A stretch of DNA of 18,136 nt from an uncultured archaeon (GCA_964510585.1 CAZECW010000161.1:1-18136), one strand, 5' to 3'. Counted from the stretch's first letter, positions 138 through 8,240 are shown. Made by a program: numbers and translations. The notes: generated from the letters alone by a model not told the origin.

Positions 138-560
138 GTAAATAGGCTTGAGCCTCATAAGAGAACGCTTCACACTCTAAGTCCCCTAATGATATTCAAA
201 GATCAAAAGCCATTCCTGGTTATGGGCACAATGGGGGGTGACGGGCAACCCCAGACGCACATGCAGGTAATATCAAACATTATAGACTTTGGAATGGATG
301 TGCAAGAGTCTATCGAAGCCCCCAGATGGATAAGTGAAAGCTTCAAAACTGACCGCCGTTTCGTAGACATACTTATTATGGAGAGAAGATTCCCCCAAAA
401 AGTCGTGGCCAAGCTGGAATCAATGGGTCACCGGGTAAGTTATGTTGAAGAATGGTCACAGATAATGGGCCACGCCCAAGCAATAATGATTAAGAAAGAG
501 GAGGGAGCCATGTATGGTGGAGCCGACCCTAGGGGGGATAGCGCCGCGTTTGGTTGGTAG
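138..560 (+). pseudogene. ggt: Gamma-glutamyltransferase (GGT) family, 3' fragment cut off by the IS insertion
   Basis: The frame upstream of ATG 189 reads VNRLEPHKRTLHTLSPLM from 138, matching the GGT N-x-L-x-P-x-KR-x-x-HTL-x-P motif. It continues with GTMGGDGQPQ, EAPRW and GGADPRGD. Sequence upstream of 138 is IS end with an in-frame TAA at 78-80, and the catalytic Thr region is not in the fragment. Confidence 0.8.
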
Positions 561-5129: not shown

Positions 5130-5228
5130 TGAAAAGGTTCATTATGAAAAATTAAATCATTCACGAATTTTTTGTTGTTGCGTTTAAATAAACAAGGATG
5201 GGGGGAGTTTTCTGAAAACTGAGAAGAG

Positions 5229-5246
5229 GGCTGGTTAGCCTTTTTT
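5229..5246 (+). terminator. Candidate terminator downstream of trpS
   Basis: GGCT-ggtt-AGCC hairpin followed by T6, between convergent genes. Confidence 0.3.
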
Positions 5247-5451
5247 GGCGAACGTTAACCGGTGAGAAAATAATTCGAAATTAATTCCCTTCCTGGAGAT
5301 AGTGGTGTATAATATAGGATTGGTATACATGAGTGAAATGGGTACAATTGTTGTTACAAGGTTGGGGATTGAAGGATTGTTTTGTGTTTGAAATTTTCAG
5401 AGAATCCTTTTTTGGCAGGTTGGCTGAGTGCCCCACTTTGGAACTTGTTTT

Positions 5452-6111
5452 TTATAGGCTTAGAAAAATTAGGGTGATTGTTATTACTAGTGTTATTGTC
5501 CAGAGGGTTAGTATTATTATGTGGGCTTCTGTGGTGCTTCTGATTTTTTTGGCGGTTTCTGAGGTTATGTTTTGTTCGCTTTTCTGTATTATTCTTTGAA
5601 GGTCTTTTCTTAGGCTTTTTATGGATTTGAAGGTTGTTATCAGGATTTCGTTGCTGTTTTGTGCGATTTCTGTTTCTACAGGTTTGTAACCTTTAGAGTT
5701 TACTGTGTAGAGTTTGTAGTCTAAATCCTCAATTTTTCCGGTTTTGAAAAAGGTGGTTGGGTCTATTACGAGAGCTAGGGCTTGGGGAAACATTTTCTGG
5801 TACTTTTGCTGGGTGGCTAGGTCTGTTCCGGACATGAATCCTGCTCCCATTCCTGGGTGACTGTGCCACCATCCGATTATTGTTTCGCCTTCTCCTCTCG
5901 CGTCTAGTTCTTCTGCTACTTCGGCCATCTCTGTGTCGTCAATAACGACGTATGCAGAGGTGCTGGTGTGTTTGGTTATGGTGCTGTCTGTTATTACAAT
6001 TTTATTTCCAACAATTTTTCCTATGAGGAATCCGGCGGATTCTTTTCTTAGGTCTATTCCTGTAAAGTCAATAATTTTTGACAGTGCGGAGGGGTATATT
6101 ACCACCCTCAT
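5452..6111 (-). CDS. MPN+/JAMM metalloisopeptidase (Rpn11/CSN5-like) with C-terminal helical stalk and predicted tail anchor
   Basis: E24 in ESAGFLIG; IGWW-H83-S-H85-PGMGAGFM-S94-GT-D97; TQQKYQ...ALVIDP. The last 22 aa are uncharged (IIILTLWTITLVITITLIFLSL). GAGGA SD upstream of the ATG. Confidence 0.88.
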   Translation of the reverse strand: MRVVIYPSALSKIIDFTGIDLRKESAGFLIGKIVGNKIVITDSTITKHTSTSAYVVIDDTEMAEVAEELDARGEGETIIGWWHSHPGMGAGFMSGTDLATQQKYQKMFPQALALVIDPTTFFKTGKIEDLDYKLYTVNSKGYKPVETEIAQNSNEILITTFKSIKSLRKDLQRIIQKSEQNITSETAKKIRSTTEAHIIILTLWTITLVITITLIFLSL

Positions 6112-6207
6112 TCAATATTCCTCAAAAGTTTTGTTTTGATTAATTGTTTTAAAGAATAAAAAAAGTTTCTGTCCGTATTTGGAGGTGGAATAAGCTTTTG
6201 GTTGTTC

Positions 6208-6237
6208 AAAAAAAGGGTTATTCTCCTTTTTTGGAGA
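6208..6237 (-). terminator. Candidate terminator after the 255-aa hypothetical gene
   Basis: On the minus strand, TCTCC-A6-GGAGA hairpin followed by a T7 run (6214-6208), directly after the stop at 6240. Confidence 0.4.
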
Positions 6238-6239
6238 GG

Positions 6240-7007
6240 TTAGTATATGAAATATTTCTCATTTTTGTGTATTATGTCGAGCACTTTTTGATATTCCTTT
6301 AAGAATTGCATATAAGCAGCATTTTTTTGTGTGATTTTCGGGTATTGTTCAATTATGTTCCAGTCACTTTCTACATTATTCTCGGTGAACCTTTCAAGTT
6401 TTTTGGTGTCTGCTTTGAGGATTTTTGTGAGTGCAGACTCGCGAAATTTGCCCTCTTTTAGCCCTTTTGCTAAGGGTCCATAAATGGCTCGGTGTTTTCC
6501 TCCAAGAACAAACCTTGCTCTATCTAAGCCTGAAACGAGGCGTACTTGGGCTTTAACAAGACTCGATTCGCGTCCCATGGTGATGGGGAGGGCGGCGCGG
6601 TGTTTAATTCTAGCTAATTCTTCGGGAATCAGTACTTTGCCTTTTTGGGTGGATATGGTTTCAATTATTTTTTCTATTTCTTTAACGGTTGAGGATTCTA
6701 GGGGATCAAAAACTTCGGGACTAATTATGTTGACTAGGGGGGTTGGTTCGTCTAAACGCATTTCGGTGGGGTCGAATATGACTATTCCTATTCGCTCCTC
6801 TATAAATACGGGTTTTCCTAAAACGTCTGCTTTACCCAAAACAATTCCCGGACCTATGAGACAAGACCTTACTATGGAACCCCTTATTAGTGACCAAAGC
6901 TGTCTTGAGGTTATCAGGATGTTCCCGTTAAAGTCAGCATTCCCAAATTCGAAGTTTAATTCGGGGATCTGTGCATCCATCAGCCAGAATAGTACGCGTT
7001 CCTCCAA
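6240..7007 (-). CDS. Hypothetical protein, 255 aa
   Basis: Long ORF with globular-protein composition. Its TTG start directly abuts the upstream TAA (TAATTG). No family motif recognised. Confidence 0.75.
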   Translation of the reverse strand: MEERVLFWLMDAQIPELNFEFGNADFNGNILITSRQLWSLIRGSIVRSCLIGPGIVLGKADVLGKPVFIEERIGIVIFDPTEMRLDEPTPLVNIISPEVFDPLESSTVKEIEKIIETISTQKGKVLIPEELARIKHRAALPITMGRESSLVKAQVRLVSGLDRARFVLGGKHRAIYGPLAKGLKEGKFRESALTKILKADTKKLERFTENNVESDWNIIEQYPKITQKNAAYMQFLKEYQKVLDIIHKNEKYFIY

Positions 7008-8240
7008 TTAGGATTCCTTCTCCTCTATTTGTATGGGTAGAACTATTCGTTCCCAAAGATAATCTGTGACTATTTTTTCTACCAAATCTGTTGGGTCGCC
7101 CTCTTTACCCGCTAATTTTTTCTTCAAGTATTCTAGGGCTTCTTGGGTTGTTATGGGGGGGAGGTTGAAATCTTGAGATATTTTGTGTATTATCCAAGCA
7201 CCGCTTTCTTCTATTCCCTGACCCTTACTTAACAGGGCTTTGTGCACTTTTCTTACCCTTTCCAGCAAAAAGCTATCTCTGACTGCTATTACCCTCCTTT
7301 TGGCAAAGATGAGGTCTCTTTCAAGAAAATCGCAGGGCTCTTTGAGATCCGGCCCCACCATTCCATCGCGCATTATTGGTGGGGTTACAATTAGGTAATC
7401 TGAAACTCCGACTGTCGGTTCCAAGGCAATGGGTTTAGGAGCTACTTCCAAAATTATCTGAGCTATGGCATGCACAGACATTGCCTGCAAGGATTTTTCT
7501 AAATCGTCTATGAGCTCATAAACTTTATCTAGGGGAGTTGCGCTACCTTCAGACATTTGACCAACTTTAGTATCGGCCTCAAAAAGGCTTTTGTCTGATG
7601 AGTGTTCAAAAGCTTCTGAGAATTTCCTGAGTACTCTTATCAATCTTCTTTTCGCCTGTTGTAAAGCAAGGATGGCCTCTGAGTGAGTGGATTTAAGAAC
7701 CGCCGCACAGAAAGTGATAGCTGCATCATTATTAGTTGAAGCCTCATGGGTTTTTTTCCACTTGTTTATAACTGGAACAATGTAGCTGTCAGCCAGCTTG
7801 ATTCTCTCATGCAAAACATGCATCGCCTTTTCCACTGGAATACTTTCCTCCCCCTCAATAACTTTTTCCAGATTATAGAGCTCCCTAGTGTTTTGTATTT
7901 TTCTAAACAGATCACTGTAGAGGTATTCTATCCATCTCCCCTCCTGAACTGCAAAATCAAACTCGTAGGAAAGAACGGGCACCACAGGGCTTCCTATCTG
8001 TCTTCTTCTATCATATTCCCACAGAATGAGCTCCAGCGCCTTTTCGGCATTCATGACGCCATCGAGTTCCAGTTGATAAGCAACCTTGCAGAAACTAATG
8101 GGGCAGTTATAAATTTTTGATAACTCCGCAGGTTTATCTTCAGGAACATTTTTAGCCCTCTCTCCCAAATTCTTATAGGTAAGTTCGAATTCCTCCATAA
8201 CCATTGACTTATCTTCTTTCGCTCTACGGAACCAATGCAA
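7008..8240 (-). CDS. Hypothetical protein, 410 aa, probably mostly alpha-helical
   Basis: Long ORF with GAGGTG SD 7 nt before the TTG start. No family motif recognised. Confidence 0.82.
   Translation of the reverse strand: MHWFRRAKEDKSMVMEEFELTYKNLGERAKNVPEDKPAELSKIYNCPISFCKVAYQLELDGVMNAEKALELILWEYDRRRQIGSPVVPVLSYEFDFAVQEGRWIEYLYSDLFRKIQNTRELYNLEKVIEGEESIPVEKAMHVLHERIKLADSYIVPVINKWKKTHEASTNNDAAITFCAAVLKSTHSEAILALQQAKRRLIRVLRKFSEAFEHSSDKSLFEADTKVGQMSEGSATPLDKVYELIDDLEKSLQAMSVHAIAQIILEVAPKPIALEPTVGVSDYLIVTPPIMRDGMVGPDLKEPCDFLERDLIFAKRRVIAVRDSFLLERVRKVHKALLSKGQGIEESGAWIIHKISQDFNLPPITTQEALEYLKKKLAGKEGDPTDLVEKIVTDYLWERIVLPIQIEEKES

Follow-up and report, generated by a model that had tools for sequence, protein, structure and literature searches.

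A Predicted Tail-Anchored JAMM Gene in an Asgard Genome

The DNA analyzed here is a stretch of 18,136 nucleotides (nt) from an uncultured archaeon (GCA_964510585.1, CAZECW010000161.1:1-18136), and "the window" below means this whole stretch. We focused on the gene at 5452..6111 (-), whose open reading frame (ORF) runs cleanly over 219 codons from ATG to TAA (stop codon at 5452-5454), as given by the ORF list and the translation. It encodes a protein of 219 amino acids (aa; P0001) with the predicted features of a tail-anchored JAMM/MPN+ isopeptidase. Its neighbors in the window are two co-oriented upstream genes, named A and B here, and those for tryptophanyl-tRNA synthetase (TrpRS) and an isopropylmalate/isocitrate dehydrogenase. 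The source genome is a hot-spring metagenome-assembled genome (MAG) of the Jordarchaeia (Asgard archaea), 3.78 Mb in size and 96% complete, and DNA near-identical to the window was found in hot-spring metagenomes. Close homologues of the protein came from Jordarchaeaceae/Freyarchaeia MAGs, where they were named only 'Mov34/MPN/PAD-1 family protein'.

Pfam placed three MPN-type families on the protein and nothing else. The eukaryote-type JAB/MPN model JAB (PF01398) matched residues 3-109 at 2.7e-15 and 56.6 bits, compared with a cut-off of 22.5, the match to Prok-JAB was weaker (4.3e-10), and UPF0172/EMC8-9 (PF03665) matched at its threshold (24.5 against a cut-off of 24.4 bits). Kinship with EMC8/EMC9, an MPN pseudoenzyme of the endoplasmic reticulum (ER) membrane complex, was rejected, the catalytic residues being intact in the window protein; the UPF0172 match is generic to MPN domains, as a soluble JAB protein of the same genome also matches it (20.8 bits, E 3.9e-4, below the cut-off). 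NCBIfam gave sub-threshold matches only, among which the desampylase model reached 19.8 bits against a cut-off of 130. Short contigs from one RNA-Seq metatranscriptome, belonging to a relative 93-95% identical, partly covered A, B, and the JAMM gene; they were given no weight, because contigs in an RNA library do not prove transcription.

The Catalytic Domain and the JAMM Motif

The MPN+ catalytic domain occupies aa 1-150 (5662..6111 (-)). The AlphaFold2 model, with a mean predicted local distance difference test (pLDDT) score of 90, showed an MPN fold for residues 1-150 followed by a single helix at 153-218, and the means of 10-residue blocks were 91-98 over the first 160 residues. Searched with Foldseek, the model matched the Rpn11 homologue CsRpn11 of Candidatus Caldiarchaeum subterraneum, alone and ubiquitin-bound (6FJU/6FNN), with an E-value of 1e-18, a template modeling score by target of 0.86-0.88 and 37-40% identity. 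The phmmer match to CsRpn11 reached 5.3e-34 over residues 1-166. E24, the glutamate presumed to bind the catalytic water, is encoded at 6040..6042 (-), and the JAMM motif H83-S-H85-x8-S94-x2-D97, which would provide the zinc ligands and the oxyanion serine, at 5821..5865 (-). In an alignment of 46 diverse homologues, down to about 25% identity, E24, H83, H85, S94, and D97 were invariant.

Eight residues lie between HxH and S, one more than the canonical 7, and the HMMER alignment with CsRpn11 needed a one-residue gap in the latter. Within the short tail-anchored subfamily, G89, A90, and F92 of the inserted G89-A90-x-F92 did not vary. An earlier note on this DNA had described an intact MPN+ domain of the Rpn11/CSN5 type, with the five catalytic residues named above, the motifs IGWWHSHPGMGAGF, SGTD..TQQ, and ALVIDP and the spacing of 8 residues; the translation bore out each of these points, and the AlphaFold2 fold with CsRpn11 as best solved relative agreed with them. 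From the intact and invariant residues and the modeled MPN fold, the window protein is predicted to be catalytically competent.

The Stalk and the C-Terminal Tail

A helical stalk or linker at aa 153-197 (5521..5655 (-)), which ends in a basic juxtamembrane KKIR and is helical in the AlphaFold2 model, connects the catalytic domain with a C-terminal segment at aa 198-219 (5455..5520 (-)). The latter was assigned as a transmembrane (TM) tail anchor on its hydrophobicity and conservation. The Kyte-Doolittle (KD) scan with 19-residue windows peaked at 2.59 at residues 198-216, far above TM thresholds, and the summed value on the Hessa scale was about -4. Every other KD window of the protein stayed at or below 1.01, so neither an N-terminal signal peptide nor a second TM segment is expected. 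Along the helix 153-218, the AlphaFold2 confidence per 10 residues was 83, 68, 50, and 67, with a minimum of about 50 at residues 185-190; this drop suggests that the stalk is joined flexibly to the terminal helix.

The tail was kept nearly letter for letter in 15 of 15 aligned homologues at 65-98% identity. Among the Jord/Freyarchaeia genes, the 23 tail codons carried six to seven synonymous changes and four to six conservative replacements, which argues that the segment is translated and under purifying selection and, despite its richness in Thr, is not a by-product of strand skew. Within the Jord/Freyarchaeia, W204, T205, T211, S218, and L219 of the tail were invariant, a conservation far beyond plain hydrophobicity, and the Thr/Ser residues fell on two opposite faces of the helix. 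Taken with this sequence pattern, the Thr/Ser faces hint at specific helix-helix contacts in the membrane, either by self-association or with a membrane partner.

The Family and Its Distribution in Asgard Archaea

HMMER, run exhaustively against 1.84 billion cluster representatives, returned 1746 matches, and most of the best 60 had a hydrophobic helix at the extreme C-terminus. Named tail-anchored members belonged to Odinarchaeia (including O. yellowstonii LCB_4), Baldrarchaeia, Hodarchaeota, Heimdallarchaeum, and Jord/Freyarchaeia, and such forms were confirmed directly in the genome families f4, f5, f12, f14, f20, and f27. In a quick maximum-likelihood tree built from MPN domains only, the window protein fell into a clade of 39 representatives with a Shimodaira-Hasegawa-like approximate likelihood ratio test (SH-aLRT) value of 95, and 31 of these were tail-anchored. 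The soluble JAB protein encoded in a ubiquitin operon of the same genome fell outside the tail-anchored clade, and the eukaryote-type sequences (HSHPGYGCWLSGID) formed a clade of their own (SH-aLRT 98) away from the window protein.

In the 31 tail-anchored representatives, the TM core ended 0-13 residues (median 2) from the C-terminus. The linker between the MPN domain and the TM segment ranged from 44 to 126 aa over the clade, and thus behaves as a spacer. The mean K/R count was 2.45 over the 15 residues ahead of the TM segment and 0.23 after it; in the window protein, K188, K189, and R191 precede it and no charge follows. Such a bias marks an N-in tail anchor under the positive-inside rule and predicts a cytosolic MPN domain. 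The earlier note had pointed to 22 uncharged residues at the extreme C-terminus behind a helix at about aa 152-197, with no signal peptide in front. The coordinates, hydrophobicity, and helix were recovered here, and the C-terminal TM segment that it expected homologues to keep was seen in all 15 close homologues and in 31 of the 39 clade representatives.

The annotation hides this architecture, as no member bore a name other than 'Mov34/MPN/PAD-1 family protein' or 'proteasome lid subunit'. Judged by the sequences, the tail-anchored JAMM is a widespread Asgard family and is not peculiar to the source genome. Literature searches, including papers on the Asgard ubiquitin-ESCRT (endosomal sorting complex required for transport) system, turned up no description of a membrane-anchored JAMM; their coverage is incomplete and the result is absence of evidence only. 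Within these limits, the earlier note, which knew of no described JAMM of such topology, was not contradicted, with neither a paper nor a characterized family found.

A related architecture occurred in metagenomic proteins of 430-760 aa, which have an N-terminal JAMM domain, one TM segment near residue 190-215, and a long C-terminal domain that is presumably extracytoplasmic (representatives P0080, P0091, P0095, P0098, P0103, P0107, P0122, P0131, P0140, and P0162). These were annotated by JGI as 'COP9 signalosome subunit 5'.

The Ubiquitin Systems of the Source Genome and Its Relatives

A search of the source genome for ubiquitin, E1, E2, and RING genes found two ubiquitin clusters, on contigs C60 and C157, as well as two ESCRT-III genes. 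The window gene lies in neither cluster. The C60 cluster (392-2552, L016) encodes a RING protein (83 aa), a ubiquitin (77 aa, ending in GG), an E2 (135 aa), and an E1 (354 aa) with a weak ubiquitin-like match at its C-terminus. No JAMM gene is visible with this operon, which sits at the very start of its contig, with only about 390 nt of sequence upstream. The C157 cluster (C157:37000-45100; L015:3150-11001) encodes an M48-RING protein, an E2-like-RING protein, an E1, an E2, a ubiquitin (81 aa, ending in GGF), and a soluble Rpn11-like JAB protein with canonical spacing. Two of its products are unusual fusions, in which a RING domain is joined to an M48-peptidase-like domain (240 aa) or to an E2/RWD-like domain (293 aa). 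Since the window gene stands outside the ubiquitin operons and a soluble JAB is already encoded in the C157 cluster, the tail-anchored copy counts as a second, unlinked paralogue in this genome. In addition, a separate Prok-JAB protein of 150 aa is encoded in the source genome, and it fits a desampylase role better than the window protein does.

Among 201 Asgard genomes, Rpn11-like JAMMs, counted whether tail-anchored or not, were present in 139 and E2 in 142, with a near-identical pattern family by family. The two patterns differed by single genomes in five families; in f19, E2 was found in one of seven genomes and no JAMM was matched. Both E2 and Rpn11-like JAMMs were absent from all 43 genomes of f7. 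In G001, the closed 1.4-Mb genome of an Odinarchaeum-like archaeon that contains the Odin locus, PF01398/PF14464 matched the tail-anchored protein and no other, and the ubiquitin ends in GG-SVKY; another ubiquitin, in G053, ends in GG-DP. Because it is the only JAB protein of G001 and the ubiquitin there needs trimming, the tail-anchored enzyme is, by analogy with CsRpn11, an obvious candidate to mature and recycle ubiquitin in that organism.

The earlier note had named ubiquitin or small archaeal modifier protein (SAMP) as what the enzyme removes. On sequence grounds ubiquitin is favored, because the ubiquitin-specific CsRpn11 is closest to the window protein and because JAMM and E2 co-occur family by family; SAMP, in contrast, was not supported by the desampylase score reported above. 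As for a deubiquitinase of membrane proteins, also put forward in that note, the architecture of stalk and anchor was upheld, while the restriction to membrane-protein substrates was not, as the copy in G001 may be a general ubiquitin-processing and deconjugating enzyme that is merely tethered to the membrane.

Proposed Function and Points Against It

We put the probability that the window gene encodes a tail-anchored, cytoplasm-facing zinc isopeptidase of the Rpn11 type, acting as a deubiquitinase of the Asgard ubiquitin system, at roughly 70%. According to this proposal, the protein would be made in the cytoplasm, and its C-terminal helix 198-219 would leave the ribosome only after termination, so that insertion into the membrane would have to be post-translational. 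Candidate insertion machinery is encoded in the source genome by one ArsA/Get3-family ATPase (3e-93), two genes beyond the C157 ubiquitin cluster, and by one EMC3_TMCO1/DUF106 protein (6.6e-9). The MPN+ domain would then be held on the cytoplasmic face, about 45 residues from the bilayer, by the helical stalk. There, Zn2+ bound by H83, H85, and D97, the water held by E24, and S94 would cut the bond after the C-terminal Gly-Gly of ubiquitin. In this way the enzyme would mature ubiquitin precursors by trimming and release ubiquitin from conjugates, with a preference for conjugates located at or close to the membrane. Given the two ESCRT-III genes, an AMSH-like role in cargo sorting is possible by analogy.

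Several observations weigh against this reading. The anchor is not universal in Asgard archaea: the best JAMM matches in f9 and f21 were soluble, and 8 of the 39 clade representatives had no anchor. In the sister family f2, the orthologue of G006 (199 aa, L022:1203-1802 (-)) carries a strongly basic tail, KKLYRRKDTIFKERKRRKIIT, in place of the TM segment; the anchor may have been lost, or replaced by electrostatic binding to the membrane. The TM assignment was made with hydrophobicity scales and no dedicated predictor, and the co-occurrence counts in the 201 genomes take in every Rpn11-like JAMM. Moreover, the unusual JAMM spacing may affect the zinc geometry, and as a second paralogue outside the ubiquitin operons the tail-anchored copy could have a different substrate.

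The last point leads to the best of the alternatives, in which the enzyme is anchored in the membrane as proposed and acts on another substrate, namely a different ubiquitin-like modifier of the SAMP/Urm1 type or a lipid-attached ubiquitin-like protein, comparable to eukaryotic Atg4 and Doa4. The location of the gene outside both ubiquitin operons, in a genome that already has a soluble operon-linked JAB, would suit such a function, as would the subfamily-specific insertion of one residue in the JAMM motif, and an enzyme fixed at the bilayer would be well placed for lipid-linked substrates. We consider it quite unlikely, however. The ubiquitin-specific CsRpn11 is the closest relative by far, the desampylase model scores far under its cut-off while the 150-aa Prok-JAB protein is the better desampylase, and at the family level the JAMM is absent where E2 is absent, with single-genome exceptions in five families. 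Furthermore, the tail-anchored protein is the sole JAB protein of G001, whose ubiquitin needs trimming. A deubiquitinase of the ubiquitin system thus remains the preferred reading.

The Upstream Genes A and B

Gene A (7008..8240 (-)) encodes an all-helical protein of 410 aa with an invariant P-x-DFLERD, 30-33% identical to its Odin/Baldr counterparts. Gene B (6240..7007 (-)), which adjoins the JAMM gene, encodes a conserved Asgard protein of 255 aa, 33-41% identical to the counterparts in the same lineages. Both are co-oriented with the JAMM gene, and the TAA of A abuts the TTG of B, which makes them a translationally coupled pair. The spacer of 128 nt between B and the JAMM gene (6112..6239 (-)) contains a T-run after the stop codon of B and a TATA-like stretch rich in A/T, and GAGG stands 8 nt ahead of the ATG; the T-run and the TATA-like stretch suggest that the JAMM gene may have its own promoter.

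Sequence and profile searches gave no Pfam, NCBIfam, or PDB match for A or B. B was considered as a catalytically inactive MPN- partner and rejected, as hhalign against the JAMM family gave a probability of 0.5%. A fold model of the pair was obtained from an artificial read-through fusion (P0259) with TAA read as Q (table 6); the underlying alignment contained two more read-through rows, with the A homologues trimmed, and the B half was poorly sampled. In this AlphaFold2 model (pLDDT 78), A was all-helical, with the stretch around P-x-DFLERD, the most conserved one, partly disordered, and B consisted of a beta-rich N-terminal domain and an alpha/beta part. The clusters of the AlphaFold database returned only unnamed orthologues for the fusion model, the best PDB match by Foldseek had an E-value of 0.05, and VIA-align gave generic helical matches with Z of at most 6.7. 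We do not claim a new fold for B, because its half was barely tested in the fusion run. The ESM Atlas held nothing usable for A, and its model of a B homologue was very poor (pLDDT 0.31), so that the structural neighbors were meaningless. A joint fold of A, B, and residues 1-196 of the JAMM protein gave no answer (score 0.00), which speaks neither for nor against binding.

The A-B pair (A about 390-430 aa, B about 255-270 aa) was annotated as hypothetical in all members (among them L006:3968-5985, L007:2575-4566, L017:3817-5774, L018:3832-5792, and L019:1875-4046). B was present in 84 of the 201 sampled Asgard genomes, as a single copy in nearly all. The pair neighbored the JAMM gene in five Asgard families. 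In Freyarchaeum, Odinarchaeum, and f20, homologues of the pair (30-41% identity) directly preceded the gene of the tail-anchored JAMM, and in the Baldr loci (f15 had the same order) and in f12 one inserted gene stood between.

Such neighbors allow a reading in which the JAMM protein is mainly a subunit of a membrane-proximal complex with A and B, and its deubiquitinase activity is regulated by, or secondary to, these partners. Rpn11, CSN5, and BRCC36 all depend on partner subunits. The order A-B-JAMM is shared by Jord/Frey, Odin, f12, f15, and f20, with proteins 30-41% identical, the pair is translationally coupled, and the stretch of A that is conserved best is predicted to be disordered, as docking segments often are. 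The contigs of a 94%-identical relative also point this way, as their homology with the window ends at 5449 and 8269, near the edges of the three-gene block. The functional link between A/B and the JAMM is nevertheless unproven, because the pair also occurs without it: 42 of the 43 f7 (Thor-type) genomes had A-B and neither an Rpn11-like JAMM nor E2. Conversely, the JAMM occurred without B in f2, f4, and f8. AdoMet (S-adenosylmethionine) synthetase, a further neighbor, is syntenic as well in Odin and Baldr; the gene order may therefore be inherited and not functional, and the possible promoter before the JAMM gene and the lack of MPN similarity in B speak against such a complex as well. On balance, we regard this arrangement as very unlikely to be the main function.

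Two further features of the surroundings were observed. In Freyarchaeum, a DUF116 gene (207 aa) stands between the JAMM and TrpRS genes (L001:6753-7376, L004:6779-7402); it is missing from the window, where 322 nt (5130-5451) separate the two. At 189-560 (+), the window holds only the last ~120 residues of a gamma-glutamyltranspeptidase (PF01019 positions 404-511), and this gene is truncated.

A Proposed Membrane-Tethered Step in Asgard Ubiquitination

Rpn11 and CSN5 assemble into complexes through their C-terminal helices. A packing of the hydrophobic C-terminal helix into a soluble bundle or homo-oligomer, as for Rpn11 in the proteasome lid, would agree with this use of the helices, with a Jordarchaeia tail (W204, T205, T211, S218, and L219 invariant) more conserved than a plain anchor needs and with its two Thr/Ser stripes as possible packing surfaces, but is highly improbable, because 22 consecutive uncharged residues with KD values of 2.6-3.1 that end 0-13 residues from the C-terminus, preceded by basic residues on the N-terminal side only across representatives with otherwise unrelated tails, are the signature of a tail anchor and not of an amphipathic bundle helix, and helix-helix motifs fit packing inside the membrane equally.

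If the preferred reading of an anchored, conserved Rpn11-like deubiquitinase is true, at least half of the ubiquitin cycle is fixed at the cell membrane. The results suggest that archaea run part of their ubiquitin system at the membrane, which bears on the purpose of Asgard ubiquitination. A broader and rather doubtful extension would be that the ancestral Asgard ubiquitin system was built around a membrane-tethered, tail-anchored Rpn11-like JAMM as its primary enzyme for maturing and recycling ubiquitin, and the only one in Odinarchaeia. Asgard ubiquitin signaling would then take place mainly at the membrane surface, for example in cargo sorting with ubiquitin-binding ESCRT or in the extraction of membrane proteins for degradation, and in several lineages the enzyme would form a membrane-associated module with A and B.

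Comparison With Known Systems

CsRpn11 (PDB 6FJU, 6FJV, 6FNN) is the nearest characterized system. It trims its own ubiquitin precursor and cleaves ubiquitin conjugates but not SAMPs, its catalysis does not need the C-terminal helices 149-202, which correspond to the stalk of the window protein, and it was treated as soluble in the paper describing it, which never mentions membranes (PMC6043591). It shares with the window protein the MPN+ fold, the catalytic residues, a segment of the Ins-1 type, the lack of Ins-2, and helices that extend the C-terminus after residue ~150. The enzyme is a stand-alone one and comes from an archaeon that has ubiquitin, E1, E2, and RING. CsRpn11 has 202 aa and x7 spacing and is encoded in a ubiquitin operon, whereas the window protein has a terminal TM helix and x8 spacing and is encoded outside the ubiquitin operons. 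In the MPN tree, the window protein is also separated by clade from the soluble, CsRpn11-like JAB that its genome encodes.

After CsRpn11, the next structural matches were yeast and human Rpn11, CSN5, BRCC36, and AMSH. Eukaryotic Rpn11 (PSMD14) and CSN5 resemble the window protein in fold, active site, and the presence of C-terminal helices after the MPN domain (Foldseek E 1e-13 to 1e-15, phmmer 1e-13 to 1e-16). Both work as soluble parts of PCI-MPN complexes, where each pairs with an MPN- partner, and show little activity in isolation. The window protein, unlike them, falls outside the eukaryotic clade and carries a membrane anchor; no MPN- partner came to light in a search of the genome limited to JAB models, and the neighbor B has no MPN similarity.

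AMSH and AMSH-LP (STAMBP), JAMM enzymes that act on ubiquitinated membrane cargo, matched the predicted structure with E of about 1e-11. AMSH is soluble and reaches the endosome by MIT and SBM interactions with ESCRT-III and STAM. In contrast, the window protein has no MIT or other recruiting domain in Pfam, and a predicted intrinsic anchor would take the place of such partners. HvJAMM1 and PfJAMM1, of the Prok-JAB type, are archaeal JAMM isopeptidases that remove ubiquitin-like modifiers; they are small and soluble and act on SAMPs, whereas the window protein lies far below the desampylase cut-off.

To our knowledge, the characterized JAMM deubiquitinases, archaeal or eukaryotic, are all soluble and recruited by partners, and the eukaryotic deubiquitinases with a membrane anchor of their own belong to an unrelated protease class. 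USP19 sits in the ER by a C-terminal tail anchor and USP30 in the outer membrane of mitochondria, each facing the cytosol and held by a single TM helix of its own; as cysteine proteases of the USP class, they are unrelated to the window protein in fold and mechanism. The catalytic domain described here is an ordinary one. New are an intrinsic tail anchor, the broad conservation of this anchor among Asgard archaea, and its place in the sole JAB protein of Odinarchaeum.

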